NCBI GenBank assembly: GCA_032718475.1
Contig: JAUCBJ010007360.1
Span: 1 to 53,003, forward strand
Reading direction: 5' to 3'
Origin: Nemertoderma westbladi
Lineage: Eukaryota > Animalia > Xenacoelomorpha
DNA: 53,003 bases
Part shown: positions 8,896 to 28,411 of the stretch, piece after piece
How positions within the stretch are numbered: the stretch's first letter is position 1
How the letters are laid out: each line of letters starts with the position of its first letter
The notes under the pieces: model-generated
What the model saw: only the letters and a program-made list of their open reading frames with translations
Told to the model about the DNA's origin: nothing
Databases searched by the model: none
Translations under genes and position numbers: made by a program

Positions 8896-8951
8896 TAATT
8901 TTATTATTATATTTTCACTGTTCAAGTAGGATATAGTAGGATATTGTTCTA

Positions 8952-9746
8952 CAGGTGCACAAAAGTTGCTAAATGGCAAAAAAAATAAGGCAAAAAAAAT
9001 TATTTAAATTTCGTCTATATCTTCACGGATCCCAAGAGGGTTAAATTTTGAGCCGTCGCGATGCACCATAATGAGATATATAACAATATAAACACATTGA
9101 TGAAAGATCAATGACTCAAAGAAAGAACTTCCTGCATGCATCAAATGTGATCAAATGGGTCCAAACTTAGTTAGATGGTTGGGACTAAGGGAAGTAGTGC
9201 CACAGGCACATGGCCAGAACCTACCCTTTGGCACAAGTGACTCTTATTCTCAATTTTGGTGATGGACAACTTTTAGGCTATAAAAAGGCTGTAATGTAGA
9301 CTTGTGTCTGACTTCACATTTTCTGCGATATCTCAAGAACTATTCGCTCTACGTTTGTTTTGATGGTGTCTACCCCCACTAAGTCGGTCATTGCGGTTAT
9401 CATGAGCATAATATTAATGCCGTAGGAGAACTCAAAGTTGGCCATCGCGAAAATTGAAGTCTAGTGAAATCTAGTGGCACTAGTTCCATTGATCCAAAAA
9501 TTTAAATTTTGGTATCTAACTACTGTAGGTTTGGACCAATTTTTTTAAGACATTTGATGCAGGGAGGAAGTTCTTTCTTGAGTCTTTGATCTTTCATCAA
9601 TGTGTTATATTTTTATATATCTCATTAGGGTGCATCGCGACGGTTCAAAATTTCAACCCTCTTGGGATCTGTGAAGATATAGAGGAAATTCAAAGAATTT
9701 TTTTTTGCGTTATTTTTTTTACCATTTGGCAACTTTTGTGCACCGG
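8952..9746. mobile_element. Tc1/mariner-type MITE with ~200-bp terminal inverted repeats
   Basis: TA-caggtgcacaaaagttgc...gcatcaaatgt (8952-~9148) is the imperfect reverse complement of acatttgatgc...gcaacttttgtgcaccgg-TA (~9550-9746); TA on both flanks. Confidence 0.9.
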
Positions 9747-9959
9747 TAGAAAAATGAAATCGAAAAAAAGTAAAAAACGCACCGCCCTAGAAATCATTTT
9801 TTAATTTTTTTTGGCCAGACGAATCCAAGTAGGGTTAGAAGTTTAGACCAATAGTGCCGGAATAGATTTAAGACATTTCTTGTCTGAGATTTTATATTCC
9901 CTATTTGAGGCCGAATTAAATTTAAAAAAACTATTATTATCTCTGCTACTGTAGTTCTA

Positions 9960-12900
9960 CAGTCCAGCTCACCAACAGAGTGCCATCGGATCCGATCTGA
10001 ACCGATCGGATCCAACAGCTTCAAACACTTTCAGACAAACTCCAACAGTCCAACAACTTCAAACAGATTCAGACAGTTTCAAACAGATTCAAACAGTTTC
10101 AAACAGAATCAGACAACTTCCAACAACCTGTCAATCACTCCACCCACACTCAACCGCAACCCCAACTCAACTCCCCTTGTGCGCAGATAGAATGAAAGCC
10201 TTTGAAACTACTAAAGGAACTCCATTCATAAAGCCTCAATAACGACAGAGTGGACTGGCCACTGGCGGCGCCCTTGAACATTCACACTGTAACTTAAGCT
10301 GACCTGAAGGAACAGCCCATTAGTGTGGTCGGTATTTCTCTTTATTCCTGCCGCTATCTTTGAATAACACAATAGCAGAAAGCTAACCAGTGGTCTACCC
10401 CCAATACAAGAAAGACAAGTTGGCTACCATTGAAATGAATGGGGAATGGAATTCTGTGTTCACATACTTATGTTGCTTTGGGTTGGTCTAGAGCCATACA
10501 ATAGAGCTTTACGGAAATACACTTCCAAAGAGCCAAGCAGTGGCGGTATAGGTCCAAAATGCCCATGTAGAATTTCTTCGAATAAGGCTCAATTTCTTTA
10601 AGTTACATTAATTAAAAATACTGATAAATATATTTTGCTTTCCGCAGGAGGGACAGTATCCCCCTCTACAGTTATTATAGTGTACGTACATGTGTTAGTT
10701 ATATCGTTGCGTTTATTTATATTTATACAGGTTTGGATATGATCTCTACTACTGTAGTTTGATTTTTGTTTTGTCAATTAATTAATTGTGCGGTTAATTT
10801 GTCAATCACAGCCTTAATTGGCTACATTGCTTATTGTATGAATGAATATAATTAGTTATTAAGACATTATTTTAATTAGTATCTGGTGTGATTAGGTCTA
10901 CCTTTTACATAACAACAGTACGTCAATGGCGGATATACTACAGCTACTACTACTAAGTCGAGCGAACTCGGACAGTGGAAATGAGATTCTTCCAGGCTTC
11001 CCGATTCTCCATAGTTGTCGCAATTTCGTTTCTCCCAAGTTCAGAGATGGCGGATATACATTACATCATAATAGGCTCATTCCATGCAAATGTCAACCGC
11101 AGTGCCAATTTTGAAAAAAGTGAATTATTGCTTCTCATATCAATTTTCAGAACCAATATATGATGCGGTTTACGAATTTAATACAAAAAAGGTAGGCCTA
11201 AGGCTTAGGCTAAGGCCACCAACAAATGATACAAACAAATTTGCTATCGCCATGCCTACACTTCTGTTTTACTTACAGTATTAGGCACTATAATATGTTA
11301 ACCTCTATTTGTTTTTCTACTCCATTGGGGGGTATTCGTACATTGTCAGTGGTGGATGGCAGAACAGAACAATGATTTTGCGCCATTCTTTTCATGCTGG
11401 GACCGACTTTGAGAAAGGACAATGACAAACTTTGTTTGAAACTTTGTTACGTTATTTATCGCAATATTGGAATGCTAGAATGGCATATTAAAGCCCGTAC
11501 AGCCTTATGTTGGAGGCCTATTAATTATATCTATAATCCCCCCCCCCCCCCACCCCCACCCGCCTCTTCACAACTGTGCAATGTGCTGTGCACTGTACTA
11601 AAGGCCGGACCTCCAGTGGAATTGTATGCTTTAAATACTTGAACATTTACTTGACAGGCAGTCACATGTAAACATGTACACAGTACTGTAGTAAGGAGCT
11701 TTACAGGACCAACTACTGTAAGTTTGGTAGGTTAGGTTTAGTATTTTGGTTAGGGTTAGTTGCATGGTCATTAATCTTTAAGTTCAAATTATATGTAGCA
11801 ATCTCACTGAAAAGTTTATAATTATCACTTATTTAGTCGGAATAATGTAATAATTAACGATTTAATGTGTTTATAAATGATAAAATCGCACGTGTCCCGC
11901 ACTTTACAATGAAATGTCCCACACTTTACATGACTTTGCTGCACTTAAACTACTCCCCTGTTTCATTGAAGTTACCTACCAGCTTACTAAAGGCTAATCT
12001 ATTTTCCCTACATATCTCGGAACATCATGAAACAAAACATTTCCCACTAACTTTACCCAATTCGACAGTTGAGTATTTCACTTTCGTACGCGTCCCGCAC
12101 TTTACAATTTTTTGAAGCAATAATTCTGAGACATAAACTGCTGCAGGTTTTCCAAAGTGCTTTTTTATACAGAACCGATAATTGGTTTTTCTAAGAAACA
12201 CAAGCATTATAATATTGTAGTTCATTTTCATGATGTACAGTACTAAAGTCTGCACAAAACGTCGTACGAATGTCCCGCACTTTACATGGAATGAGCCAAT
12301 ATGGCATGGCAGTCACGTGAAAACAAGGGCCTTCACATTCCCAATTCTCTATCTAATCTATTATGGTTGTGCGTAATGCTCAATACTACTTTATGATATT
12401 AATTCATTCACGTTTAACATTAACAGCCACGTTTCATCACCCCCCCCCCCCCCCCCCCCTTCCAATGTGACAAACTATCACGATATGTTGGCGTTGGGCC
12501 CCGTCCCTACGTCCACCCTCCCTTGTGAAGGGCTAGGGGGGACTTTCGACCCATCATTACTAAAGGGTAGTGATAATATTCAAAGGATATGGAGTTCCGT
12601 TTCGAAGTTCGCCTTGCAGAGACTAAAGTTGCAATAACTTTTGAGTGTTTGAATGTAATTTACTCAACTAGGGTAGGTGCGCGAAAAAGTAGTTGGGCTA
12701 GAAGTATTACGTGCAAACCTTTTCATTTCGATGCTCTTTCAACACAACTAATAAAATTAACCAAAAATATTTTTTTCACTCATTGTAATTATATTTACTG
12801 TTTACTTAATCTGTTTGTGTTTATATCTGTTTATGTGTAGTATTTAGTGCCCTACGTCAAAGAAACTAATATAATTATAGCATTATTTACATTTCTAATT

Positions 12901-13322
12901 AAATTAAGGAATTAAAAACGTGTTGGTGTTATTATATTCATTTATCGGAATTTATATGATAGGAATTTATTATTCGTTTATGCATTCTAGTTAATTAATT
13001 GATATAATTAACGACATAATTATGTAAATAAAAATTGTTAAATGAAACAAATCTTTGTTTCGGTTTATAATTGAGAATAGCACACCCTCACAATCACTTC
13101 AAATTGAGAGTAAAAGTGATTGACATTTTGTTAATGAACTACGCTTTTATAAGGCATTGGCAAATTCCAACAAATTCCGATGGCGTCAAACATCTTCAGA
13201 CAACTTCAAACAGTTTCAGACAATTTCAAACAGCTTCAGACAACTTCAGACAACTTCAAACAACTTCAGATAGGTGTTGGATCCGATTGGAGCCGATGGC
13301 ACTCTGTTGGTGAGCGGGACTG
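9960..13322. mobile_element. Non-autonomous TIR DNA transposon (TA TSD, CAGT termini; Tc1/mariner-like)
   Basis: TA-cagtccagctcaccaacagagtgccatcgg... versus ...ccgatggcactctgttggtgagcgggactg-TA; 10-bp caacttcaRa-type repeats next to both ends; no transposase ORF. Confidence 0.8.
11074..12297. mobile_element. Nested TIR element with 4-bp TSD (AATA); superfamily uncertain, possibly Sola-like
   Basis: aata-ggctcattccatgcaaa ... tttacatggaatgagcc-aata; subterminal gtcccgcactttaca motif four times at 11894-12286. Confidence 0.7.
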
Positions 13323-13631
13323 TAGATATAGAGTTGTTTATTGATTATTAGCCTAATAAACATTTGTACCAAATACGGTATGTAACTAATAAATAAACGA
13401 TACCTTAATTAACGATCAATATTAGACTAATATCAGACGCACGGCGCACATCGGATATCAGATTCAGACCATCTGAAGTCTGATTCCGTATGTAACGATG
13501 CACAATGCTCTTCAGATTCAGAGTTAAAAATCTGACACCTCTGACAGTCCAGATAGTTTATACTCAAACAGACCATTGTATCAGATGTGAGGCACCTAGG
13601 AACGCTGTTTATATACAGTATCCCTGTCATA

Positions 13632-13753
13632 TCATATCAGCTCATATCAGTTGCCCCCAGCTCATATCAGTTGTCCCCAGCTCTTATCAGTTGTCCCCAG
13701 CTCCTATCAGTTGTCCCCAGCTCCTATCAGTTGTCCCAGCTCATATCTGTTGT
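13632..13753. repeat. 20-bp minisatellite (cagctcatatcagttgtccc), left part; the array continues at 28016-28070
   Basis: Tandem units stop at the LTR boundary and resume after the other LTR. Confidence 0.9.
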
Positions 13754-14290
13754 TGTGACGGGATCCAGGAGGGATCCCGATTTATCCGGTGTGGTATTTA
13801 GTCCACGCGTCCCCGCCGTGTGTAAGAGTGAAACAAAGATAACTGAGTTCTGAAGTTCGGTGTATAATAAGAGGTTATAAGATATAGATATATTGTGAAT
13901 GTGTACAAGGCGGGATACGGTAACTAAAGTCCCGTGATCCCCTAACTAAACTAATTGGCTGTACCCTACGCTAGCACTGCTGCACTGAGATAACTGAATC
14001 ACTGATTAATAGGTTATTGGTTATATTGCACGGTGGCCTTACTGCTACTCAATCGATGCCATTCCCCCCTCTGATTGGTTAATACCCTTGTTGGCGCCCC
14101 GTGGAGTATTCCCGTTCACTCCACCTGTTCTCTCTGGGTTAGGGGTTTGGCCCCTGACCCTCTATTGTGTGCTTCCTTCCCACTCTTATTGGGATGGCAC
14201 GAGTTGGTTAATTGCCCAATCTCCTGGCTCCCAATATTGCTTATTGGCTAATAACTTTATGGGGTGTTGGCGGGATTGAATAAGCTAACA
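13754..14290 (-). repeat. 3' LTR (537 bp)
   Basis: Matches 27498-28015 except for a 19-bp indel and one substitution that I could see. Confidence 0.97.
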
Positions 14291-14300
14291 CTCCCCCCCA
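14291..14300 (-). promoter_or_regulatory. Polypurine tract, preceded by an 11-bp-stem hairpin (14300-14328)
   Basis: Minus strand reads a G-run then AG immediately before TGTTAGC of the 3' LTR; stem atgctatcttc / gaagatagcat. Confidence 0.85.
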
Positions 14301-15000
14301 TGCTATCTTCCCGGTAAGAAGATAGCATCAACCAAAAAAGTGCGCTACAATCCCGCTGGATCCCGATCTAGTATCGGGTGTGGGGTGGAATTCTTTTCTC
14401 TCGGAGTCGGCTTTCCAGGCCGCCCCCTATGGGTATGATATCGCTACCCTGTGTGCCTGGCGTCTCATGTCGGGCCGGTCGCGCTCACCTCCCACGCAAC
14501 TTTTGTTTCCCCAACATTTTCGCCCTATCTCACCTTCACTCTCACCCTAACTCTCTCATACCCCCGGACCTCCTCGTCCCTTACTCAGCCTCTTATTCTC
14601 CCCCCCCCCACACTAGAATTGCGTTCGCACTCTCTCCGCACTTCACACTCTTATTCCGATTCTCAACTCCACTTTGACTGTTTTATCTCTCCTGACGAAC
14701 CTCCCCCCCCCCTCTCGTGCCGCCGCACTCAAGAAGTGTGGAATTGTCAGTTGTCTCGTCCATAGTGCCATAGTCAATTGTCCCCCAGTCCCAGTAGCTA
14801 ATTGAGAAAGGTTGCATGACTATAGTACTTACTCCAAACGTATGTATTTTACTGCTAATCACTACGTATGTACATACGAATTGCACTTATATAGTTATTT
14901 GCATTAATTAAATTTATACTTAATAGTTCGTACGTCACATGCGGCGCCTTCCAGGCGCACCACGTCCCAGTCTCAGTCTCATTCCCTCGCCTCCGGGAAC

Positions 15001-15252
15001 TTATCTGTACCTCCTCACGTCCTCCTCCCTGGCCCGTTTCTTGGTTATCACCGCTCCTCTGGCATCATCCGCTTTCTGCTTCCGGACCTTTGCCGCTACT
15101 TCCTTGCTGATCCCGGTCGTCGGCTCCTTGGGCGCTGGTGTTATTAAAGCCCGATACCGCTTCGCCGGTGGCCCCTCAGAATGGCCTGGTTGTTTCCCTC
15201 GTGTGGCGTCCCATAGGATCATTTTCATTGCCTTTGGTACGTGTTCCGCCAA
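15001..15252 (-). CDS. Basic, NLS-like small ORF; possibly the frameshifted C-terminus of the exonuclease ORF
   Basis: Frame is open upstream and overlaps the end of 15260-17554 (PPENRREFRDFLAEHVPK...PPAKRYR...KKRAREE); similar composition. Confidence 0.4.
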   Translation of the reverse strand: MAEHVPKAMKMILWDATRGKQPGHSEGPPAKRYRALITPAPKEPTTGISKEVAAKVRKQKADDARGAVITKKRAREEDVRRYR

Positions 15253-15259
15253 GAAATCC

Positions 15260-17554
15260 CTAAACTCCCTCCGGTTCTCTGGTGGTCCACCTGTCCAGGT
15301 ACCGTTGCGTGTTCATAACTCCGGTGAACGATGCCGCCGTAGCTACCTCTTGATAGGTAAACGGTAACCTTCGCTTTATGATTTCCATGTGGGTCTCCTG
15401 GTTTATGAGGAAGAAACCCCACTTGAACTCTTGGGCCTTCATGCGCTGGCGCGTCATGGCCCCGACGTCGGCCCACTCCTCGAACCTCGTGAACTTCTCC
15501 TCGTCGCTCATCCAGTCGCACTCGCGCCCGTAGTGTCCCCGAAAGTGGCACTTTGGACATCGGTTGTGCAACCGTGGACACGCCCCCATCCTGTGACTTG
15601 GTTCTCTACAATAGAGACAAAAGGTTCCCCGTTGGAACCGGTATAGGCAGCTGCTTTCCTGATGGGTCTGTCTCCCACAGTAGTCGCAGCCGAGTACCAA
15701 TGTCTCGCGTCCCACCTCGTCCTTCGTCCCAAGCGATCTCCGCGGTCTATGGAGTCGCTGGTAGGCAAACTTCTCCACGTTGCTCTCCCTGTTTACGTCG
15801 ATCTCTCCGCCCCTCTCGGGCATCGTCTCCCCGAATACTATCCGTGGTGCCGTCCCCGGTTGCTCGCCCAACCTGATGGTGCTCCCCGCGAAATCCATCG
15901 CCGGCCCCTCGTGCACCCAGGTCCGCTTGCCGGATCTGTTCCAGAAGGCCCTCGCCCCACTGGCCGTCACCACCCTTCCGCCAACCCAGTCCATGTCTGA
16001 GTGGCCTATCCTTTCGATGGGCGGTATCTCTCCGAACTCGTCGTCGTCGTCCTCCTCTTCTGGTAGTGTCTCCAATCCCGGTATCCCGGTGGATCCACTA
16101 TGTCCCTTCCCGCCTTGGCTCTTGCCCGTAGCTCTCCATCCCTCTAGCTCCCTTAACTTCCTTGGCGGTTGGTCGCCCTCGGCGCCCGCTGGTATGGGCA
16201 TCGCGTGCAACCCCGACGTCGACTGTTTCGGCGATCCCACCGTCCATCCCAATTCTCGCCCTAGAGACTCCCCCGAACTCCCCGACGAAGTCCAATGAAG
16301 TTCGTCTAGGCCCGCCTGATCCTCGAAGCCGTAACTCTGTGCCCTGGCCTCCTCTTCCCTCTCCTCTGCTTCTATCCTCTCCCGTCTAGCGACTTCTTCC
16401 AGTCGCTTTGCTTCCCGTCTATCCATCTCCAGCTGCTCCCATCTCTGATACGGTGTATCTGTCTCCCCATCTACCAGATGTCGGCTGTTGTAGTACACCG
16501 ACTCGCCCTTCAGCCCCGGGTGGTCTACCAGTTCTACCAGGTCGTCAAAGGCCGTCTTAAAGGCTCTCCTGTAGCTTAGGGGTGATCCCGATAACAGAAA
16601 TGCCCCTGGTTCCCTTTCGATAACTACGGTCATGAATAAGTTAAGTAAACTTATCATCATCCAGTCCTCCTGCAGGATATATCGCTTCTGATATACCTTT
16701 ATCGCTCCTCTGCGAAACTGATATACCTCCTGCTTTCCCGGTCTCGCTCCCCACTTCAGCGAGTTCGCTAGTTCTGCTCCGTATTCTTCCCTAAACTTCC
16801 CCCAATCCATTGGTTTGTGGCATACGAGCCCCAATAATTGGCCCATCGCCACCGCCCCGCATTGGCCTGAGTTCTCGACCACCCCCAATCCATCCGGTGC
16901 CGTCATAGCCATAAAGACTTTCTGCATATCCAGGAGGTTGGTGGCGTCCGGACCGATGATCCTCTCCGCGTCCTCGCGAATCGCCGATCCCACTTTCGTC
17001 GTCGACTTCTCTCTTACTAAGACCTGTACCGCTTTCGGCAGTCGGTCTAATTTCGGCCCGTCCTTCTTCCCATACGTCCCTAGGTCGAACAAGAAGATGT
17101 CCCCATTTGGCGCTGCCAAGTGCAAGAGTATGGTCCTGGCCGACCCTGCCGTTCCTCGTCTCGAACCCGCTTCGTCTTCCACGGTTCCCTCGTCATCTAG
17201 GATCATATATCCTCCTCTGTTGACGGACTCTATGAATCTTTTCCAGTCCTTCCTCGGCGATTCCCTCGGATACTTCGGAATCCCGAACTTCGCCTCGTCT
17301 CCTTTCACCACGTAGTGGAAGTGTTGGAAGATCGCGTTGTCCAGCGACGGCGTCCCGTAGGTCCCGACCAACCGCTGTTCGTGCGCCTCCCGGAAGTGAT
17401 CCTGCAGCGCTCGTGCCGCGTGACCCCTTTCCAACCTCTCGTAGTATCCTCTCGTCTTCTCCTCCGGGTGTCTTTCGGTGAAATCCACCAATATTTCTTT
17501 TCCTCCTGACTCCGCCTTTCTCTTCCTGATCAGCTTACTCGCCATTCCGAACAC
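15260..17554 (-). CDS. Accessory ORF: DEDDy 3'-5' exonuclease-like domain (WRN/EXD/mut-7/RNase D family) plus three CCHC zinc knuckles
   Basis: 764 aa, first ATG at 17545; ExoI-like MILDDEG, then LLHLA..GDIFLFDL, LPKAVQVLV..KVGSAIREDAERI (ExoII), NLLDMQ and QKRYILQED (ExoIII-like); knuckles CDYCGRQTHQESSC, CLYCREPSHRMGAC, CPKCHFRGHYGREC. Confidence 0.75.
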   Translation of the reverse strand: MFGMASKLIRKRKAESGGKEILVDFTERHPEEKTRGYYERLERGHAARALQDHFREAHEQRLVGTYGTPSLDNAIFQHFHYVVKGDEAKFGIPKYPRESPRKDWKRFIESVNRGGYMILDDEGTVEDEAGSRRGTAGSARTILLHLAAPNGDIFLFDLGTYGKKDGPKLDRLPKAVQVLVREKSTTKVGSAIREDAERIIGPDATNLLDMQKVFMAMTAPDGLGVVENSGQCGAVAMGQLLGLVCHKPMDWGKFREEYGAELANSLKWGARPGKQEVYQFRRGAIKVYQKRYILQEDWMMISLLNLFMTVVIEREPGAFLLSGSPLSYRRAFKTAFDDLVELVDHPGLKGESVYYNSRHLVDGETDTPYQRWEQLEMDRREAKRLEEVARRERIEAEEREEEARAQSYGFEDQAGLDELHWTSSGSSGESLGRELGWTVGSPKQSTSGLHAMPIPAGAEGDQPPRKLRELEGWRATGKSQGGKGHSGSTGIPGLETLPEEEDDDDEFGEIPPIERIGHSDMDWVGGRVVTASGARAFWNRSGKRTWVHEGPAMDFAGSTIRLGEQPGTAPRIVFGETMPERGGEIDVNRESNVEKFAYQRLHRPRRSLGTKDEVGRETLVLGCDYCGRQTHQESSCLYRFQRGTFCLYCREPSHRMGACPRLHNRCPKCHFRGHYGRECDWMSDEEKFTRFEEWADVGAMTRQRMKAQEFKWGFFLINQETHMEIIKRRLPFTYQEVATAASFTGVMNTQRYLDRWTTREPEGV

Positions 17555-18051
17555 TACACTCGCTCACCTGTAGGGTGGTGCCTTACCAAGGCGCAATACA
17601 GATGAGTGATGTATTAAGATGTTTCGTACAGTTCGATAATGGCCTACTTTTCTACTTAACTGCGCCTTTCAAGCTTAATTTAATCTAATTAATTTCGGAG
17701 CTAGTAAATCAGCCTAATTTACAATTTCCGTCCGTTACTTTTATTATGTTCTAGAACGACTTTCCTTGTGTTACCACTATTTTCCGATTTTTAGCCCTAT
17801 TCTATTTATTTATTTATTTTTGCTTTGATTCTACTGTCCTACTACTTACTACTGCCTATGGATTTATTCTATTCTCTCTCTGATCCATATTCTGGCCTAC
17901 TCAGTGGGCCTATGCAGTACAGCAGTATGCGTCGTGTGGCCACACGATTTATCCAGCTGCACTCATATGCCCCCCTCTCGCTACTAACTCTACTTACTGC
18001 TAACTAATATCTATATCCTATTTTTACCCCTTTTACCTCTCACTCTCTCTC

Positions 18052-18727
18052 TCTAACTAATGGTACTACGTACCCTCTAACTCTAACTCTTAGGCATTAC
18101 GTACCCTCTAACTCTAACTCTAACTAGGTACCACGTACCTACTAACTCTAACTCTATCGGTACTACCTACCCTCTAACTCTAACTCTAACTAGGTACCAC
18201 GTACCTACTAACTCTAACTCTATCGGTACTACCTACCCTCTAACTCTAACTCTAACTAGGCATTACGTACCCTCTAACTCTAACTAGGTACTACGTACCT
18301 ACTAACTAACTAACTCTAGGTACTACGTACCTACTAACTAACTTTAGGTACTACGTACCTACTGACTAACTAACTCTAGGTACTACGTACCTACTAACTA
18401 ACTAACTTTAGGTACTACGTACCTACTGACTAACTAACTCTAGGTACTACGTACCTACTAACTAACTAACTTTAGGTACTACGTACCTACTGACTAACTA
18501 ACTCTAGGTACTACGTACCTACTAACTAACTAACTTTAGGTACTACGTACCTACTGACTAACTAACTCTAGGTACTACGTACCTACTAACTAACTAACTT
18601 TAGGTACTACGTACCTACTGACTAACTAACTCTAGGTACTACGTACCTACTAACTAACTAACTTTAGGTACTACGTACCTACTGACTAACTAACTCTAGG
18701 TACTACGTACCTACTAACTAACTAACT
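18052..18727. repeat. Internal tandem array of ~20 hairpin-containing ~32-bp units
   Basis: Core taggtac-tac-gtaccta separated by (ctaa)n linkers; alternating 64-bp dimer in the right half. Confidence 0.95.
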
Positions 18728-18837
18728 TTTATTTTTATTTTTTATTTTATTTTATTTGTGTGGGAAGGGCGTCTCGCCCTCAATCCCACCCCCCTCAGTC
18801 CAAAACTTGGACGACTAAACTTCACTCTAACTCCGTT

Positions 18838-19314
18838 CTAAGGTGCTCCTTCTAAGAGACAGCATTTACCTACCGCTCTCCTGTAGGTTTTTCTGTCCTT
18901 CGCACCTATCTTTCCACCTATCCGCACTTCCACCGATCGGACTCTTCCGTCCTCGTCGGAGTAGGTGCCTACAACTCTCGCCAACCGCCATTGGTTGTTG
19001 ATGATAGTATCATCCGTGACGATTACGAGATCTCCCTCTCTCAACTCCCTGTTTGGCTTCCTCCACTTGCTTCGCTTATGGAGTGTGGGTAGGTATTCTT
19101 CTACCCACCTCCTCCAATACTCTGCGCTAATCGCTTTAGCTACTTTCCAACTTTGGCGGGAGTGTATATCATCTGGGTCTACACCCCGCATATCTATGGT
19201 TGCTGGCCTTTCCATCAGGAAATGGCTAGGCGTCAACACGTCTAATGACTCAGGGTCATCATTCTCCGGGTATAGCGGTCTGCTATCTATTAATGATCCC
19301 CTCGCACTTCGCAA
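18838..19314 (-). CDS. BEL/Pao integrase C-terminal part (DUF5641-like), frameshifted from pol
   Basis: SRPL...LTPSHFL...YWRRWVEEYLPTLHKRSKW...GDLVIV...WRLARV...DGRVRSVEVR; break caused by a duplicated 4-mer at 19283-19290. Confidence 0.9.
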   Translation of the reverse strand: MRSARGSLIDSRPLYPENDDPESLDVLTPSHFLMERPATIDMRGVDPDDIHSRQSWKVAKAISAEYWRRWVEEYLPTLHKRSKWRKPNRELREGDLVIVTDDTIINNQWRLARVVGTYSDEDGRVRSVEVRIGGKIGAKDRKTYRRAVGKCCLLEGAP

Positions 19315-22300
19315 GTACTGTCCGTAAGACGTCTTCAGTGACCATGTGGGTGTTCATCAGCTTCGTCATTAGACGTTTTGAACTGCCCACGAGTCTCTCG
19401 ACGCATCCTAACGTATGTGATGCATACGGCGTCCTTCTCTCCCACTTCACTTGTCGTCTTCTCATGGCCGCTCTGACTTCTTCTCCCTCCAAGATGTCTA
19501 AGGCCTCTGCCATCTCACTCTCTGCGCCCACAAAATTGGTGCCGTTGTCGCTATATATCACCGCGATCGTCCCACCTTTGCGGTCCCTAAACCTTTCTAA
19601 GGCGTTAATGAATGCTGATGCGGTTGCATCTTGGGCGAGTTCTATCCCTACCGCCCGCGTATTGTTGCATACGAAGATAATACCGTAGCGTTTCTCCGTG
19701 TGTCGCATCACCTTGATCTTTATCGGCCCGAACATGTCCACACCGCAATGCGTAAATGGCGGGTCGTGCTGTCTTACCCTACTCGCCGGTAGTGGCGCCA
19801 TCTCCTGTACGGCTCGCTCCTTCTTCGCTCGTCGGCAGGTCTGGCACTGTCCCACTACCGCTTTCACCTTCTTCCTTAGTTGTTTGACCCAATAGGTCCT
19901 CCTTATCTCTGTGAGGGTTCGGTTGGTGCCCCCATGCAGTATTGATTTGTGGGAGTCCCATATGATCTGGTGGACTATAGGCGATCCTGTGGGAATGATG
20001 ATGGGTTTCGGTGGCACGACTATACTGTTGTTATATCCCACCCTAGAATTCATCACTAGAATCCCTTCCTCGTTGAGTTGTGGCGACAGCGTGATCAACT
20101 CGCTATCCCGTCGGAGGTGTTGGTGGTTACCGACGCGTTCCACCTCGTCGCCGTAGTTCTTGCGTTGCTCATAGCGGATCACTGCCTTGGCCGCTCCTTC
20201 CAGATCTATGGTTGTCCTGGTCTTCTTGTCCTTGCTGACTCCCGCAAGGAAATTCCCAAAGGCTCTCCAGTACGCCACTAGTTTCTTGGTCTTATACCAA
20301 CTAGAACTGTAGCTGAGGAGTTTATCCGTCGGGTTATCGCACAGTTCCCTTCCTGGTTGCACGTCCCTGATCTCCCTCACCATCTGGGAGTATATCTCTT
20401 CTCCCTCTGAATCTCCCTCTTCTCCTTCTGATACTACTTCCGAGCCCGGGTCCACCTTCCTCATCGGCGGCCAGGCCTCTCTATCGCTCAGAAATTGTGG
20501 CCCATGTTGCCACAATACTTCCTTCTTCAGGAAAGTGTGGCATTCCACGCCCCTCGACAGCAAGTCCGCTGGGTTCTCATCTGTTGGGCAGTAGTGCCAC
20601 CTTTCCAGTTCTGTGCTCGCCCTTATTTCGTCCACTCTATTCGCGACGAATATCGGGTATCTCGTCTTTTCGTTGTGTAGCCAACCAAGCACTACCATGG
20701 AGTCCGTCCAGTAGTGTGTCTCCACTATGTTGGGAATTGTATCCACTAGGTAGGCTGTGGCTCTAACTCCTAGTCTCGCGGCTGTCAATTCTAACTTGGG
20801 AACAGATGCTGAATCTGGCGGCGTTGACTTAGCTTTGCTAAAGGCTAGTCTGGGCTTGTGAGGCCCCTCTCGTTGTACTAAATAGAGTGCCGCTCCGTAT
20901 GCCTCTAGGGACGCGTTGGAGAACATATGTAGGTCCAGATTCGTCATGTTCCCGTCCGGGAAATACACTCGCGGCATGTTGTATGTTCCCATCCTCTCCA
21001 AGTCTCCTGTCCATTTGCTCCACTGTTTCCTGATGTCTTCTGGTACCTCTACGTCCCACTCATCCTTCAACTTATATACTCTCTTGAGTATCTGTTTCCC
21101 CGTGACTAGTAATGGGGATGCTAGGCCTAAGGGATCGTATATCCTTGCTATATACAATACGTAACCCCTCTTCGTATGGGTGTCTGCGCCCTCCTGGCTC
21201 AGCTGATACTTCAGTTTGTCTGTTTTCCTATCCCACACGATTCCCAACGCCTTCTGCTGGGATTCCGTTCTCTTAATCGCCATGTCCTGTCCTTTGGCTG
21301 TTGTAGGGTTGTCCATGGTCGATTCTGGTTTCTTGTCTTCTATTTCCCTGATAAATTCTTCTGAACTGGATTGGAATTTGGTCAGGTTGAAGCCGGATCC
21401 TTTCAGGATGTCGCGAACCTCGCGCCCTGTTTTCAGTATCTCCTCAACCGTATTTCCAGACTCCATGCCGTCGTCTACGTAGAAACCGCGTCTGATCATA
21501 TCGACGGCGCTACTGCTATATCTATCTTCCTTGCCCTTTACCAGGTCTCTCACTGCCATAGTCGTCGTAAATGAGGACGACTTGGCCCCCATATTTTGTA
21601 CTACCATCTTATACGCTGGTATTACCGGCGGTTCTTCTTCGCCGTTATACCATAAGAAGCGTTGACTGTCACTATCTTCTTCTGTTACTCGGACTTGGTT
21701 GAACATGCCTTCTATGTCACACGTGAAGGCGTGTTTCCCATTCCTAAATCTAAGTAGTACTTCTATGCCCGAATTGTATATGTTTGGGCCCTCTAGTAGG
21801 TAATCGTTTAAGCACTTTCCGTCGGTCTTTGCCGATGCATCGACTACCATCCTAAGTTTACCTTTCTTTGGGTCTAAAGCTACGTGGAGTGGCAGGTAGT
21901 ATGTCCTGTCCGTGTTCGGTTCGTCGACCGGTAACTCCACGGCCCATCCTTTCTCGACGTACTTCTTAATCGTTTTGTGAATATACTCGTTCTTCTCGGG
22001 GCTCCGTTGCAGTGTTTGTTTCAGCTTGCGGAGTCTCGTGAGTACCATCCCTCTATTATCGGGTAGCGGTATCTTCGGTAGTTTCCATACCATTCCTATT
22101 GTATACCGCCCCTCATCACACGTCATCGATTCCTCCACACTTTGTAGAGCCTGCTTGTCTTCTACCGAGGTCCCGACCCCGGTCTCTTTCAGTCCCTCGA
22201 AGTCTTGTCTGAGCAGTCTTTTAAGCTGCTCCTCTGCTCCCTCGTCACCCATTTCCTGCATTGTTCCCGCGAACATGCATCCTGATGTCTCCGACATCCT

Positions 22301-24178
22301 GAATGGTATCTTGCTCTTAATTGGACCACTCAGCGTCCACCCGAATGGCGTTAATATGGCCACCGGGTCGCTCTGCTTGTCTTCGCCGAAGACCGTTTGC
22401 ATTCTCTCGTGGGCCGTTGGGCAGTCCATGCCTACTATGATGGATACCTTCCTAACGTCCACGTCTGGGATTGAGAAGTCAATGTTGTCCAGGAATTTGT
22501 ATTGCTCGACCTCGATGTTCGTTGGCCGCCTGGCATTGATGTTAATTGACTCTATTACTTGGATGGGGTCGATGGTTGCCCCATAATCGCATCCTGGTGC
22601 CACTGCTGCAATTGCGCACCGTCCTGTCCTCATCTCTAGGATCTCTTCTTTGCTAGAGATGGTTGTCACCGCCATCCTGCTTGGCCTCGTTCTCAACCCT
22701 ATTTCTTCGGCTACCCATTCCTCAACTAATGTGAAGGCAGCTCCACTATCAACCAGCATTAGTGTTGTTACTGATCGATTGCCTTCCCCGATCACTCGTA
22801 CTGGTACTACTCCAAGTAGCACTGTTCCTCTCTTCTTCGCCCCTACTGTGCTCGTTGCCATCGTCTGGCCTCTCCTTTGGCCAAACTTGACCGGTTTCTC
22901 TTGGCATTCCCTGGCCTTGTGTCCACTCTTCACACATCGCGAGCAGATTTTATTGCTCGACGCGTAATCTATCTGGTCTTGCCTCGGTAGCGCCTGCCAG
23001 TACCTGCAGTTCATGGTTTTATGAAGCGCATTTGCGTGTAGCTGGCATTTGCTCTTTGGGTCATAGCCCTCTTTATACAATGCATTGCGTATCGCAGTTA
23101 TATTCGTACCAAAGTCCCTACTATTCTTATTGACTGGGTTTGACCTATTGGACGTACTGGGGTTATGTTTATTCATGTTGTTATTGTTCCCCTGTCCGTC
23201 CCTTGATGTTGTCTTATCTTCGCTTGTCTGTGGACTTGCAGTCCCCTGCGTCGCTGCATATGGCAATGATTGTCTGAGCCTCGGCAATGCGTTTGATGTA
23301 TTGTGCTCTGGTTTGGGCCTGTAATGATCTGTCTTTGGTCCCTTTCCCAGGCTATCTTCACTATAAACTGGGTCCGTTATTAGTTCAGCCTCGTAATTCA
23401 AGAAGTTTGACATTTCTTCTAAACCTGGTTCCGCACCTTTCTTGTCTCGGGTGGAGAAAGCGACCTTCCTCCATTTGTTGCGCAGCCAGCTCGGTAGTGC
23501 CTGCGCTATCGTGGTGATGTTGTTGGACGCGTTGAGTTCGTATGGCGCGTCTAGCGTCTTCAGCACGATCAGCGCCTTCTCGACTTTGTTAGCAAACGTC
23601 TTAATGCTAACGGGATTATCCTGTAGGCCACCCGATGTTATGCCTCTCAGCGTTTGCCTGATGATCTTGGCCGGGTGCCCGTATTCCCTATCCAGTGCCC
23701 GCCATGCTGTCGTGAAGCCGCCCTCTATTCCCTGATATTGCCTCACGATGTCGTATGCTGGGCCTCCCGTGTACACTTGTAGATACTTTAGGCACTCCGC
23801 CTGCGTCAAATTTTTTGTTAGTATTTCGTTACTATACATTCGCCAAAACTGTAAGTATTCTTCCGGCCTGCTCCCATCGAATTTGAACGGTTCCACGGGT
23901 GGTAATTCGATCCTCGTTTTCAACGCATCGATCAACGTGGCCATCCCCATTGCCTGCGCTTCTAATGGATTCGACGGATGCTGTATAGTTTCCCCTGTCT
24001 GGTGCGGTTCGTCCGTCCTATTTCTTGATCTTCTCTGACTCGGATATGTCATCGGGGGTAGCGGCCCCCTCCATATGTCTGTATCACACGACCTGTTTTC
24101 GTCTAGGGGTCTCGTTGTTCTTGTTCCTGTCTGGGTATATTGTTGATATTGTGATGGGGGAATGTCACCCTGTCCCAC
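19283..24178 (-). CDS. BEL/Pao Gag-Pol polyprotein (capsid, zinc knuckles, aspartic protease, RT, RNase H, integrase core)
   Basis: FDGS..EYLQFW capsid region; CSRCVKSGHKAREC; LVDSGA; KLRMVVDAS, DIEGMFNQV, FYVDD; FSNAS...PKLEL...WTDS; H-H-CxxC; GVDMFGP, YSDNGTNFVGA, VERLV. Confidence 0.95.
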   Translation of the reverse strand: MGQGDIPPSQYQQYTQTGTRTTRPLDENRSCDTDIWRGPLPPMTYPSQRRSRNRTDEPHQTGETIQHPSNPLEAQAMGMATLIDALKTRIELPPVEPFKFDGSRPEEYLQFWRMYSNEILTKNLTQAECLKYLQVYTGGPAYDIVRQYQGIEGGFTTAWRALDREYGHPAKIIRQTLRGITSGGLQDNPVSIKTFANKVEKALIVLKTLDAPYELNASNNITTIAQALPSWLRNKWRKVAFSTRDKKGAEPGLEEMSNFLNYEAELITDPVYSEDSLGKGPKTDHYRPKPEHNTSNALPRLRQSLPYAATQGTASPQTSEDKTTSRDGQGNNNNMNKHNPSTSNRSNPVNKNSRDFGTNITAIRNALYKEGYDPKSKCQLHANALHKTMNCRYWQALPRQDQIDYASSNKICSRCVKSGHKARECQEKPVKFGQRRGQTMATSTVGAKKRGTVLLGVVPVRVIGEGNRSVTTLMLVDSGAAFTLVEEWVAEEIGLRTRPSRMAVTTISSKEEILEMRTGRCAIAAVAPGCDYGATIDPIQVIESININARRPTNIEVEQYKFLDNIDFSIPDVDVRKVSIIVGMDCPTAHERMQTVFGEDKQSDPVAILTPFGWTLSGPIKSKIPFRMSETSGCMFAGTMQEMGDEGAEEQLKRLLRQDFEGLKETGVGTSVEDKQALQSVEESMTCDEGRYTIGMVWKLPKIPLPDNRGMVLTRLRKLKQTLQRSPEKNEYIHKTIKKYVEKGWAVELPVDEPNTDRTYYLPLHVALDPKKGKLRMVVDASAKTDGKCLNDYLLEGPNIYNSGIEVLLRFRNGKHAFTCDIEGMFNQVRVTEEDSDSQRFLWYNGEEEPPVIPAYKMVVQNMGAKSSSFTTTMAVRDLVKGKEDRYSSSAVDMIRRGFYVDDGMESGNTVEEILKTGREVRDILKGSGFNLTKFQSSSEEFIREIEDKKPESTMDNPTTAKGQDMAIKRTESQQKALGIVWDRKTDKLKYQLSQEGADTHTKRGYVLYIARIYDPLGLASPLLVTGKQILKRVYKLKDEWDVEVPEDIRKQWSKWTGDLERMGTYNMPRVYFPDGNMTNLDLHMFSNASLEAYGAALYLVQREGPHKPRLAFSKAKSTPPDSASVPKLELTAARLGVRATAYLVDTIPNIVETHYWTDSMVVLGWLHNEKTRYPIFVANRVDEIRASTELERWHYCPTDENPADLLSRGVECHTFLKKEVLWQHGPQFLSDREAWPPMRKVDPGSEVVSEGEEGDSEGEEIYSQMVREIRDVQPGRELCDNPTDKLLSYSSSWYKTKKLVAYWRAFGNFLAGVSKDKKTRTTIDLEGAAKAVIRYEQRKNYGDEVERVGNHQHLRRDSELITLSPQLNEEGILVMNSRVGYNNSIVVPPKPIIIPTGSPIVHQIIWDSHKSILHGGTNRTLTEIRRTYWVKQLRKKVKAVVGQCQTCRRAKKERAVQEMAPLPASRVRQHDPPFTHCGVDMFGPIKIKVMRHTEKRYGIIFVCNNTRAVGIELAQDATASAFINALERFRDRKGGTIAVIYSDNGTNFVGAESEMAEALDILEGEEVRAAMRRRQVKWERRTPYASHTLGCVERLVGSSKRLMTKLMNTHMVTEDVLRTVLAKCEGIINR

Positions 24179-25172
24179 CCCCCACTGGTATGTCTGGTAC
24201 TGGGGTTGATGTTAATATGTTGGGGCCCATACACCTATCCGCAATAATTCCCCCCTCCCCTGGGTATATGTTATGTCCCTGCATGCTGTAGTCATACTGC
24301 TGTGCTGGTACCGGTATAGGCCTATCAGCTTCTGGCCTACCCGCCGGTATGTATTCCGCGACTTCCGGGTTTAATCCCGTTGTCCGCGCTATCCTATCGC
24401 CTACATTGCCTCTCTCAGTATGGCCTACGGTATGTGCAGTAAGGCCTATAGTATGTCCTACAGTCTGCATGTGGTGTTCGGGATCGAAGTTTATTCTTCT
24501 CGAATAATCCTCCCCGCGGCTACCGTAATCTCGATCGGTAGGTATATTCCGTCGGAAAGTTTCTCTTCGACCCCCCTCTCCACTGTTTTCATCTTCGTAC
24601 CGATACATCGCGCACCCCTCTCTCGGCGCGTAATGCGTCTCACCGGATCGCATCCCTCCGGGGTGACGGCAATCTCCCGGAGTCCGACCCCACTGACTCT
24701 CCGTTCTCATCTCGACTACCGACGGCTCGCTGTCCGTCCTCGCTCTTCTATCGTTTGCGGCGATACTTCTACTACTGTCTTCCCCTCTTCTCCTATCAGT
24801 GGAATATTCCCGCTCACGAGATCTCTCGTCGACCTCCCGGTTAAACCCCACTGTTCTTCTTTCCTCCTCTGATCGGGCTCGACGCTCCGTCTGCCCTCCC
24901 GCGACGTCAACCTGTCTTTCTCTGCTCGATCGCACGTCGCCGGGGATACTCGCAATCCCCCTATTACTCTCCGTCGCCGGTTGTTGCGGTTTACCTTGTT
25001 CGGCCCTCGCATTGTCCGCTGACGGCTGTGGGACACTCTCTGCCCCCCCCCTCTCGCCGCTAACTTTCTGTTGTGGGGTGCTCGTTGCCCCCCCCCCACT
25101 CGCTACATCTAACTTCGCTACCTCTCGCCCCGCTACTATATATTTCTCTAGTCGACACATCAATCCTACCAC
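24165..25172 (-). CDS. Low-complexity ORF upstream of gag, probably a frameshifted N-terminal extension
   Basis: 335-aa R/E/G-rich ORF overlapping the gag-pol frame at 24165-24211 around a G6 run. Confidence 0.55.
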   Translation of the reverse strand: MVGLMCRLEKYIVAGREVAKLDVASGGGATSTPQQKVSGERGGAESVPQPSADNARAEQGKPQQPATESNRGIASIPGDVRSSRERQVDVAGGQTERRARSEEERRTVGFNREVDERSREREYSTDRRRGEDSSRSIAANDRRARTDSEPSVVEMRTESQWGRTPGDCRHPGGMRSGETHYAPREGCAMYRYEDENSGEGGRRETFRRNIPTDRDYGSRGEDYSRRINFDPEHHMQTVGHTIGLTAHTVGHTERGNVGDRIARTTGLNPEVAEYIPAGRPEADRPIPVPAQQYDYSMQGHNIYPGEGGIIADRCMGPNILTSTPVPDIPVGGGTG

Positions 25173-25749
25173 AGTCGGGTCTATTCACCCCCGCCTCTCC
25201 CTCTGCTATTGCGTGGCCTTCCAGGCCCTCTGCTCCCTGTCTACCAACTACGTGGCCTACCAGGCCCTCTGCTCCCTGTCTACTAACTACGCGGCCCAAC
25301 GTGTTTACATTAATAGCACCCATATTGGAAACGGAATTAATTTGCTCATTTGAAACAAAATCATTTGTATTATTCTGCGCGACTACGTTATCTGAATTAT
25401 TTTGTAAATTCGGGCTAAGATCATTATTTGAATTATTCGAATTATTCTGTGTAATTGCGTTATTTAAGTTATTTTGTAGGTCCGAATTCGAGTTATTATT
25501 TTGATTATTTGAATTATTTTGCGTAACTACATCAATATTAGGATTATTTTCTACATTAACACTGGGATTGTTCTGATTTAAACCCAAATTACTACCACCA
25601 GGCAAAGTATTTCCTGTAATAAAGGTTTGATTAGCGTTATCCCATACGGTACTATTAATATCAACAACGTCTACTGTACCATTATTATCATTATTACCCC
25701 CCCCCGCTCGTACGGTCGCACCAGTCTTGAGTCTATCGTGCGGTCCCTG
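25060..25749 (-). CDS. Asn-rich ORF segment of the element's 5' region
   Basis: Frame is open 25749-25060; AT-rich NN..QNN repeats; overlaps both neighbouring ORFs. Confidence 0.45.
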   Translation of the reverse strand, partial: QGPHDRLKTGATVRAGGGNNDNNGTVDVVDINSTVWDNANQTFITGNTLPGGSNLGLNQNNPSVNVENNPNIDVVTQNNSNNQNNNSNSDLQNNLNNAITQNNSNNSNNDLSPNLQNNSDNVVAQNNTNDFVSNEQINSVSNMGAINVNTLGRVVSRQGAEGLVGHVVGRQGAEGLEGHAIAEGEAGVNRPDCGRIDVSTREIYSSGARGSEVRCSEWGGGNEHPTTES

Positions 25750-27376
25750 TCAGTGGGGTATTAATAAATGTATCTACGGCCCTCGGCTCCTCAAAAATAC
25801 TCGAGCCGGCCCCGGATTCAGACGGCGTCGCTTGCACGTATTCCAACTCGTGCTCCCCTCTAATTATATTTCCCGCAAACTCACTCTTCCGTTTCACTAA
25901 TTCCTTGCGCTCTTTTTCACTCTCTGCTACTTTCCCCTTACGCTCCTGGGTGTCCTTGATGGCCGAGTCTGCGGCACTCTTAATGCTCTCCCTTCGTCTC
26001 GCCCCACGCTCTTTGCGTTCCTTTTCCTTTCTCGTCTCATATTCCTTATGTTCCGCCTCACGCTCCTTGCGTTCCCTTTCCTCTCTCGCCTCACGCTCCT
26101 TGCGTTCCTTTTCCATTCCCGCCTCACGCTCCTTGCATTCCTTTTCCATTCCCGCCTCACGCTCCTTGCGTTCCGCCTCACGCTCCTTGCGTTCCCTTTC
26201 CATTCTCGCCTCACGCTCCTTGCGTTCCGCCTCACGCTCCTTGCGTTCCTTTTCCTCTCTCGCTTCACGCTCCCTACACTCCCTTTCCTCTATCTCATCA
26301 TACTCCCTTAGGCTTTTCAAAGCCCTTTCGGCCCTTTCTCCGGTTTCTCTAAGCAATACCGTTTCCCTCTCCAACCGCACTCTTCCCTCCTCTAGCCGTT
26401 CCTTCATTTCTCTCTGACCTTGCTCTGCCATGCTGAGACGGTATGCGGCTCCTATTTTCCTCACCGCTCTTTCTTTCGCGGAGGATGTAGCAGACTTATC
26501 GGTTATGACGGACTTCCCCCGCCTTCCCGACCTACTAACTTTCTCCCCCTTCCCGGAGCTTTCTCCGACCGACGAGGCCGAATCCTCGGTGTTAACCTCG
26601 GATTCGCCCTCTTCAGGTCCCTTCCAACCCACTGGTTTTACTCCCCGGGCATCGACCAAGTATGGCCCTATGTACACTGGCGCTACGCTAGGTTCCATAC
26701 TCCCACACTCCCATAGTTCAAACAGTTCGCCGGCTATCCTTTCTGCTCTCTCCCCGGCCAGTTCTCTCTGCCCAAAACGTATTAGGTAATTTAAGTGTTT
26801 ATCCGACTCACCTAGTCGCTTTCTCAGTCTCACCTCGTCTACCTTCGCCCCTTCCTTCTTAGCGTCGCTTATCAGCTTCCGGGTCGCGTTGTAGGCCCGT
26901 CAAAGTCGCTCAGAAACCCCGACGTCCTCGTCGCCGACCTCTCCTCCGTCCCTCCGGGTCCGACGTCGTACCGGCGGCTCCACCGTCGCCGTTCCGGTGG
27001 GCCGTCCGTCGCCCTCGGCCTGTAGCTGGCCGGCGACATCGGTACCGATCTCTCCTCCGTCTCTTCGTGTCCGGCGTCGCACCGTCGGCCCCACCGTCGC
27101 CGTTTCGGTGGGCCGCCCGTCGCCCTCGGCCTGTAGCTGGCCGGCGACATCGGCGCGCCGTTCTGCCTCTCGTGTCGACTCATCTCCTTCTCCCTCCGTC
27201 TCGCTCTCTCTCTCTCTTGGCTCGACTTCGGGTTCCAGGCCCTCCTCGTCCTGTGCTTCTGGTTCGCCCGTTATCGATGGCTCCGGCGTCGTGGGCCTGT
27301 ATCGTTTGGTCGCGGCCTCGCGGATCGTTAGGTCTTCGTCCGGGGTCCGCGTCGGTGTCTCGCCCGATTCACTCAT
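25733..27376 (-). CDS. 5' ORF: acidic repeat N-terminus plus E/R/K coiled-coil, with one in-frame TGA at 26900-26902
   Basis: Track ORFs 26900-27376 and 25733-26833 share a frame and are joined by RAYNATRKLISDAKKEGAKVDE; (ERKEREA)n repeats. Confidence 0.65.
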
Positions 27377-27497
27377 CTCGTTTGTGGCTGATGATTCGGC
27401 TAGCTAGGTTGTACCGGTAGTTCTTAGAGTTTAACTAGGGCGGCAGCTCGGTTTTAGTTACTGAGTTTAGCTGGGGAAGCAACACCGGTTTAGTTAC

Positions 27498-28015
27498 TGT
27501 GACGGGATCCAGGAGGGATCCCGATTTATCCGGTGTGGTATTTAGTCCACGCGTCCCCGCCGTGTGTAAGAGTGAAACAAAGATAACTGAGTTCTGAAGT
27601 TATAAGATATAGATATATTGTGAATGTGTACAAGGCGGGATACGGTAACTAAAGTCCCGTGATCCCCTAACTAAACTAATTGGCTGTACCCTACGCTAGC
27701 ACTGCTGCACTGAGATAACTGAATCACTGATTAATAGGTTATTGGTTATATTGCACGGTGGCCTTACTGCTACTCAATCGATGCCATTCCCCCCTCTGAT
27801 TGGTTAATACCCTTGTTGGCGCCCCGTGGAGTATTCCCGTTCACTCCACCTGTTCTCTCTGGGTTAGGGGTTTGGCCCCTGACCCTCTATTGTGTGCTTC
27901 CTTCCCACTCTTATTGGGATGGCACGAGTTGGTTAATTGCCCAATCTCCTGGCTCCCAATATTGCTTATCGGCTAATAACTTTATGGGGTGTTGGCGGGA
28001 TTGAATAAGCTAACA
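27498..28015 (-). repeat. 5' LTR (518 bp)
   Basis: Direct repeat of 13754-14290, followed by the TSD GTTGT. Confidence 0.97.
27717..27751 (-). promoter_or_regulatory. Putative LTR core promoter (ATATAA plus TCAGTT initiator)
   Basis: Minus-strand ATATAA at 27751-27746 and TCAGTT at 27722-27717, about 30 nt apart; several CCAAT boxes nearby. Confidence 0.45.
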
Positions 28016-28411
28016 GTTGTCCCCAGCTCATATCAGTTGTCCCCAGCTCCTATCAGTTGCCCCCCAACTCATTTCAGATTTCTTGTAATATTGTAATGTG
28101 GTGGATATTTCAAAATTTTCTGCCACGCCCACTTTTTGTAGTAGCATGTAAAATTATATTTGAGATGATAACACTCAATAGTTTAACCACTTAAAAACAA
28201 TAACTTCAAATCAACACTAAATGATTAATATTGATTTAGTACATAAATGTATTAATGTTATGTTATATAGAATTGTTATTATTATTTTATGTCCACAGTA
28301 TTGAATCGCAAACTTTCAACATTAAACTCAGATTCACCTGTAATGATTGGACTGGAAGGATAAAGTAGCGAACAATAATTATTATACTATATTTAAATGC
28401 GTGATCCACGA

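Follow-up and report, generated by a model that had tools for sequence, protein, structure and literature searches.

What does a BEL/Pao retrotransposon encode in the position usually held by env, and how might the product serve it? The question is raised by a 53,003-nucleotide stretch of Nemertoderma westbladi DNA (contig JAUCBJ010007360.1 of assembly GCA_032718475.1; hereafter the window), in which an open reading frame that we call ORF3 follows the integrase C-terminus (which ends at 18838), precedes the 3' LTR and is oriented like gag-pol (Table 1). The element around it is a recently inserted BEL/Pao retrotransposon of 14,262 bp (13754-28015, minus strand). It has the hallmarks of the group (a TG...CA LTR pair, a short target-site duplication and a polypurine tract), and its Pfam domains follow the order gag-PR-RT-RNase H (PF05380)-IN with DUF1759 and DUF5641; PF05380 is described as the Bel/Pao RNase H in the available text of PMC3985635. 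The known range of the group fits an animal host. By blastn the LTRs are identical at 517 of 537 positions, differing by one substitution and one 19-bp indel. This copy is nevertheless defective in both gag and pol. The 5' part of gag, which has no Pfam match and which we infer to be gag from its position, is fragmented, and the integrase is split, the main pol frame stopping at a frameshift near 19283. Young LTRs combined with several lesions suggest mobilization in trans or assembly errors. In addition, the first RNase H motif does not follow the pattern that 62 of 66 matches share elsewhere among BEL loci; this may be a peculiarity of the present, defective copy. A nested insertion was considered as the source of ORF3 and rejected, self-comparison having revealed no second terminal-repeat pair inside the element. 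We found no relative of the integrase among viral contigs, no Rfam match and no tRNA.

Table 1. Features of the element and of ORF3 in the window (residue numbers count from the ATG of ORF3).
Feature	Coordinates	Strand	Basis or remark
Target-site duplication GTTGT, left	13749..13753	.	5 bp; sequence inspection
3' LTR	13754..14290	-	537 bp, TG...CA; blastn against 5' LTR
Polypurine tract	14291..14299	-	abuts 3' LTR
Lys/Arg-rich open frame, 103 codons	15001..15312	-	overlaps ORF3 end; ORF list
ORF3, 761 aa from first ATG	15260..17545	-	purine at -3, G at +4
Three CX2CX4HX4C zinc knuckles, residues 620-676	15518..15688	-	exact pattern match
G/S/P-rich acidic linker, residues 401-520	15986..16345	-	composition
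Highly charged stretch, likely coiled coil, residues 361-400	16346..16465	-	composition only
Predicted DEDDy 3'-5' exonuclease domain, residues 95-310	16616..17263	-	Atlas, profile, alignment, MSA-guided model
ExoIII, Q286-x-x-Y289-x-x-x-E293-D294-W295	16661..16690	-	Q286, Y289 invariant; catalytic Asp column = E293
ExoII, KVG...D192	16970..16996	-	K184, G186, D192 invariant, 31 rows
ExoI, D117-x-E119	17189..17197	-	D117 invariant in 31-row MAFFT alignment
Candidate splice acceptor CAG	17568..17570	-	23 nt 5' of ATG; pyrimidine tract weak, 11/20
32/64-bp tandem array, spacer between pol and ORF3	18062..18729	.	many contigs cover the array in sequencing runs
Integrase C-terminal piece with DUF5641, different frame	18838..19353	-	ORF list, Pfam
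Gag core (DUF1759), protease, RT, BEL/Pao RNase H (PF05380), integrase	19283..24211	-	Pfam
Gag 5' part, long, low-complexity, several pieces in this copy	24165..27403	-	open frames
5' LTR	27498..28015	-	518 bp, TG...CA; blastn against 3' LTR
Target-site duplication GTTGT, right	28016..28020	.	sequence inspection

The first-pass annotation had described a 764-aa sense frame between pol and the 3' LTR; its place and sense stand, and its length needs correction. From stop to stop ORF3 spans 15260-17563 on the minus strand (767 aa), and the figure of 764 counts from a GTG at 17554, whereas the likely start is the ATG at 17545, which gives 761 aa. An indel at 17556, accounting for roughly one-fifth of sequencing depth in two runs, falls between the candidate splice acceptor and the ATG and so fits a non-coding leader. 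At the other end, in four of four runs one contig with nearly all of the local depth has an indel relative to this copy near 15284. This copy therefore appears to be broken by a frameshift and the family protein is probably longer, with the overlapping Lys/Arg-rich frame as its likely C-terminal tail. The product does not look like an envelope protein: hydropathy over 19 residues peaks at 1.3 and the N-terminus lacks hydrophobic character (0.19), and consequently we see no transmembrane segment or signal peptide. On these values an env or fusion glycoprotein identity was rejected, in agreement with the initial impression that signal peptide and fusion features are missing.

The motifs that had been read in the translation are all in place, with IRKRK starting at residue 6, DxE at residues 117-119, KVG at 184 leading to the I.ED that ends at D192, and Y289 followed by E293-D294. 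Likewise, three exact CX2CX4HX4C knuckles begin at residues 620, 643 and 663; among 20,000 shuffles one knuckle arose in 1 and two knuckles in 0. In searches the knuckle region drew weak zf-CCHC look-alikes (Atlas 0.85, PDB E 0.15-2.4). Between nuclease and knuckles lies a linker of approximately 310 residues, whose composition fits the proposed charged stretch plus acidic linker: residues 361-400 hold 24 charged residues out of 40 and 1 G/S/P, and are a likely coiled coil.

We consider it very probable that residues ~95-310 have a DEDDy exonuclease fold, the assignment originally made from motif order. Our reasoning is as follows: (i) an ESM Atlas feature search with residues 60-345, made without any prompting, led to a DNA_pol_A_exo1 cluster that scored 0.94 and had 172 features in common with the query, and 25 of 30 matches belonged to the DNA_pol_A_exo1 set, although the family is assigned to only 34% of the members of that cluster and the three best matches (0.95) were unnamed fungal clusters; (ii) a WRN/EXD2-like profile made from 30 bacterial stand-alone PF01612 proteins, a family picked after the motifs had been seen, put ORF3 at the top of the 274 window frames (E 0.1) and gave residues 95-310 a score of 9.0 bits, which 0 of 2000 shuffles reached (maximum 7.5), the controls being -2.6 bits for the reversed sequence and 3.5 for the best pol window; (iii) in a MAFFT alignment of 31 rows (the 30 proteins plus ORF3), D117, K184, G186, D192, Q286 and Y289 fall in invariant columns, and the profile of these rows matches WRN, mut-7 and EXD2 best in the PDB; and (iv) an AlphaFold model guided by an MSA reached pLDDT 69.6 and pTM 0.68, and its top fold matches were exclusively DEDD nucleases, a result that is partly circular given that the MSA consists of the chosen exonuclease family.

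The domain has no match in Pfam, NCBIfam, PHROG or the PDB at E up to 10, and the PF01612 HMM failed to match ORF3 by hmmscan over the same range; HRDC likewise gave no Pfam match, at a level of divergence where Pfam misses the nuclease itself. Identity to the bacterial WRN-like members is 15-23%, with insertions on the N-terminal side of ExoIII. Alignment of the domain by hhalign gave a probability of 1.4% (E 0.037), and with another profile, of 72 RNase D/NrnC/PolA sequences, ORF3 took second place among the 274 frames on domain score, at a marginal 3.9 bits versus a shuffle maximum of 3.8. The single-sequence AlphaFold model failed (pLDDT 33), which is why we take the MSA-guided model to lean on the alignment supplied; even so, the secondary-structure order of the unguided model is compatible with DEDD. 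A fold search with the single-sequence model (best Z 5.1, RWD domains) was set aside as meaningless at that pLDDT. For the MSA-guided, partly circular model the matches include EXD2 and TbRND (TMq 0.56), with VIA Z of 11-12.6 for apPol, Klenow, Nibbler, WRN and RNase D; the best has Z 12.6, rmsd 3.3 and 160 aligned residues. Further matches are Egalitarian, including the Egalitarian-BicD complex with I-factor RNA, Exd1, polymerase proofreading domains and giant-virus 3'-5' exonucleases.

The predicted metal ligands are D117, E119, D192 and E293 (or D294), with Y289 as the 'y'. For the ExoI Glu, MAFFT set the family residue against E123 and we chose E119 by spacing. The departure at ExoIII that was flagged early on is borne out by the alignment. 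By a regex tally, 26 of 30 WRN-like domains have Asp at this position; ORF3 has Y289-x3-E293 and then D294, the catalytic Asp column aligning with E293, and W295 aligns with a Trp that many rows carry two places later. The domain is more likely than not catalytically active, and the Glu in the Asp column may weaken catalysis.

Evidence that the protein matters to the family comes from its copies. The stretch or part of it was found in 6 listed sequencing runs from 4 studies, one of which may be the source sample. In three runs 2113, 1330 and 1092 contigs aligned to an 876-bp nuclease region, and 434, 337 and 308 of these, respectively, were less than 90% alike to this copy; contig depth is not copy number, but so many dissimilar contigs imply many diverged copies of the nuclease region. 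Linkage of ORF3 to pol in other copies is something we infer, as no contig bridges the two. The nuclease region has 107 variant sites, 40 of them listed. Among those 40, 30 are at third positions, 30 are synonymous and 0 create stops, whereas placing the same substitution types at random gives 12.2 +/- 2.8 synonymous sites (maximum 24 in 20,000 draws). In a separate listing 7 of 9 ORF3 variant sites were synonymous. This excess points to purifying selection on the ORF3 protein across the family. Codons 117, 119, 192, 289, 293 and 294 contain none of the 40 listed variants; conservation of the catalytic site is only partly seen in this sample of the 107. Sister copies thus keep the frame and do not evolve neutrally, and ORF3 is a conserved, multi-copy accessory gene under purifying selection.

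Relatives of ORF3 did not emerge from the collections that we searched. Word-index searches with the whole protein and with residues 61-352 and 590-755, covering near lengths only, gave no homolog, and phmmer with residues 1-352 found no true homolog among 1.84 billion representatives; the sole match, a 14-fold repeat protein with 19 residues aligned, was rejected as an artefact. Pattern scans of metagenome and genome contigs, and tblastn against phages, returned no relative, tblastn against plasmids returned one match at E 3, and 201 bacterial genomes yielded 3 weak short matches only. No such gene was seen in 80 other BEL/Pao loci, only 15 of which had at least 2.5 kb of downstream sequence. 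Long open frames 3' of the integrase in other BEL loci proved to be the gag of the next element in 4 of 8 cases and had no Pfam match in the other 4.

There is precedent for exonuclease genes in retroelements, as the first-pass annotation had noted. According to the available text of PMC5408684, DEDDy ORF3s lie downstream of pol in the bdelloid rotifer LTR elements Juno and Vesta, and ORF3s of rotifer elements typically reach expression through spliced messages; partial texts (PMC5408684, PMC6431247, PMC5718144) also place DEDDy ORFs in Athena/Terminon elements. The ORF3 described here resembles those of Juno and Vesta in being a sense frame 3' of pol in the env position, in its DEDDy type and in an Asp-to-Glu change (the rotifer motif being DEED, with Glu here at the fourth position), and in both cases the function is predicted. 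The differences lie in the host element, which is BEL/Pao here (PF05380, DUF1759, DUF5641) unlike Juno and Vesta, and in the accessory parts: the excerpts of PMC5408684 describe rotifer DEDDy ORFs without a coiled coil and mention no CCHC knuckles, only a Cys-His-Cys motif in Vesta2/5. In addition, variation in the rotifer env and GDSL ORF3s is given there as mostly neutral, whereas ours is strongly synonymous.

The closest analogue of the overall layout is TbRND, the Trypanosoma brucei RNase D (PDB 7c42-7c4c), which joins a DEDD domain to four CCHC knuckles; both the binding of RNA and its efficient trimming depend on these knuckles, which favor U-rich tails (PMC7797062, as far as its available text goes). 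ORF3 has the same order of parts, DEDD and then tandem CCHC, and the fold match (Z 11.4) is accompanied by a weak knuckle match at E 0.49. However, TbRND is a cellular mitochondrial enzyme, and the portion of the paper at hand gives it a 28-residue linker as against the roughly tenfold longer linker and three knuckles of ORF3, which also has N- and C-terminal extensions. We see no sign of common origin and the two layouts are likely to be convergent. Within the nuclease itself the resemblance is to WRN, mut-7 (Nibbler) and EXD2, through the KVG..I..D of ExoII, the Q..Y of ExoIII and a conserved Trp, with a WRN-type score above that for RNase D/NrnC/PolA (9.0 versus 3.9 bits); the Glu at the last catalytic position and the insertions before ExoIII set it apart. 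A transposon-borne WRN-like domain with the same blocks (QL..., FP.AL..LL, KVG...D, Q..Y) is known from Dada DNA transposons, and by eye the block order of ORF3 matches the printed alignment of WRN, MUT-7, Rrp6, RNase D and Dada domains (Fig. S1 of PMC3706591, seen in excerpt). The Dada domain differs in sitting inside a DDE transposase, in keeping all four DEDD residues and in having a proposed DNA substrate (same excerpt). VIPER/TATE was dropped as a precedent, the literature match being the unrelated word DedD.

We take ORF3 to be a real, selected accessory gene of a BEL/Pao element that likely encodes a DEDDy nuclease with a triple knuckle. The suggestion that this fusion is undescribed does not survive as a statement about layout, since TbRND combines exonuclease and CCHC knuckles; in the literature searched, which included few subscription papers or repeat-database reports, neither a BEL/Pao case of WRN type nor a knuckle-fused one turned up. 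Enzymatic accessory genes are rare in LTR retrotransposons. To the rotifer cases this one adds a different superfamily, a different nuclease subgroup and an RNA-binding module with a solved analogue, together with purifying selection, which the rotifer study, in its available text, did not find for the ORF3 types that were resequenced. ORF3 also offers a concrete protein domain with which to learn if animal retrotransposons make active suppressors of defenses based on small RNAs or tailing.

As a working model, which we favor with roughly even confidence, ORF3 would be a knuckle-tethered 3'-5' RNA exonuclease of the WRN/mut-7 type that trims RNA 3' ends to blunt host RNA defenses. The protein would be made from a separate, probably spliced mRNA; its three knuckles would likely hold single-stranded RNA for the nuclease, the substrate being RNA rather than DNA by analogy with the knuckles of the trypanosome RNase D, and the basic N-terminal patch may indicate a nuclear phase. 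As targets we place foremost the host's guide or antisense RNAs, together with 3' tails that the host adds to element RNA; these take up about half the weight of the model, and next comes the processing of RNA made by the element itself. Counter-defense is our first choice for the leading role, unproven as it is. mut-7 and Nibbler are small-RNA trimmers within this nuclease subgroup. BEL elements replicate without such a gene, none having been seen in the 80 other loci (only 15 with 2.5 kb downstream). These two points favor counter-defense, as does the restriction of LINE-1 by 3' uridylation (PMC6191937, available in part). In a narrower version, which we hold only tentatively, the knuckle-guided exoribonuclease would remove the U tails that the host puts on element RNA, or would cut back piRNA or siRNA guides that are not methylated. 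If that version is true, then together with the rotifer cases it would show that the capture of RNA-trimming enzymes by LTR elements, and their coupling to CCHC knuckles, has happened independently and more than once, in convergence with the layout of trypanosome RNase D. Mature piRNAs are 3'-methylated, which makes precursors or tailed RNAs more plausible substrates.

Several other readings have to be weighed against this model. The Glu at ExoIII could mean a weakened or dead nuclease that acts as an adaptor for RNA in the manner of Egalitarian, EXD1 or Maelstrom; its fold and knuckles would grip element RNA and the coiled coil would link it to transport or assembly machinery. The long linker and charged helix would suit such a role, Egalitarian (with BicD and I-factor RNA) and Exd1 are among the fold matches, and inactive DEDD derivatives occur in piRNA pathways (available text of PMC5408684). 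We nevertheless regard an adaptor as rather unlikely, since ORF3 retains three canonical carboxylates and the Tyr, has an acidic residue in the fourth place, and shows no variation at any of these among the 40 listed variant sites (of 107). Confinement of an active RNA exonuclease to the element's own cycle, where it would trim genomic or subgenomic RNA or remove primer remnants with no anti-silencing role, has been proposed for the rotifer DEDDy ORF3s (same partial text). It could be accommodated by the weak resemblance of the knuckles to those of nucleocapsid and by the deviant RNase H motif described above (elsewhere among BEL loci 62 of 66 matches keep the pattern). That deviation may, however, belong to this defective copy alone, and the fact that no such gene was seen in 80 other BEL/Pao loci (only 15 with at least 2.5 kb downstream) argues against a general need; we think this unlikely, somewhat more so than an adaptor.

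It is also possible that the substrate is DNA, with the enzyme proofreading reverse transcription or tidying cDNA ends before integration and the knuckles bringing it into the particle. WRN-type domains also act on DNA. The closest sequence type is WRN/EXD2, proofreading domains of polymerases are among the top VIA matches, the Dada DEDDy domain is proposed to process DNA ends (PMC3706591, partial text), and at 14.3 kb the element is large. Against this, ORF3 is a gene of its own 1.3 kb downstream of pol, whereas a domain with a proofreading role is as a rule joined to its polymerase. CCHC knuckles, moreover, point to RNA and the copies are very diverse, and we hold a DNA exonuclease to be unlikely, a shade below confinement to the element's own RNA. 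Finally, the exonuclease likeness could be spurious and ORF3 a conserved nucleic-acid-binding protein of another fold, as the failure of every curated family and database to match it and the uninformative single-sequence model might suggest. This we consider very improbable in light of the independent Atlas match, the 0 of 2000 shuffles, the occurrence of ExoI, ExoII and ExoIII in order, and a secondary-structure order that is compatible even in the unguided model.

The main BEL/Pao element was inserted into a 20-bp tandem repeat and splits it into two flanking parts. Within the element, a 32/64-bp tandem array occupies the spacer between pol and ORF3, the predicted exonuclease/zinc-knuckle accessory gene. 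Many contigs from other copies of the family cover this array too, and it may regulate ORF3 expression. We also found that the first RNase H motif of the main element deviates from the pattern of other BEL loci (62 of 66 matches there), a deviation that may be private to this copy or shared by the whole family.

Features of the window and of other BEL/Pao loci
Feature	Position	Strand	Remark
20-bp tandem repeat	13638-13753 and 28014-28077		interrupted by main element
32/64-bp tandem array	18062-18729		main element
First RNase H motif	about 20910-20932	-	main element
Integrase with DUF5641	40420-41745	+	piece of other BEL/Pao element
Long gag with DUF1759	47783-53003	+	other BEL/Pao element; extends past window end
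Large satellite arrays	32165-~40300 and 28300-~30900		67-bp and 80-bp units
Inverted-repeat pairs, 54-72 nt	8943-9755 and 9948-13334
167-aa frame	8500-9003	-
Sense ORFs after integrase	L222:7321-8457
	L215:5973-7082
	L238:5397-6293
	L244:4298-5044

It is possible that accessory genes are also present in four other BEL/Pao loci (L222, L215, L238 and L244), where sense ORFs of 249-379 aa lie downstream of integrase; a Pfam search with these ORFs returned zero matches.

Besides the main element, the window carries parts of further BEL/Pao elements, including an integrase piece with 36% identity to the main element's integrase. Long ORFs within the satellite arrays were rejected as genes, being repeat artefacts; the 67-bp unit gave 113 overlapping reference matches. 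The 167-aa frame had zero matches in a Pfam search and, judged by its motifs, presumably resembles the last part of a protein encoded by a non-LTR retrotransposon. The inverted-repeat pairs may be marks of non-autonomous DNA transposons.
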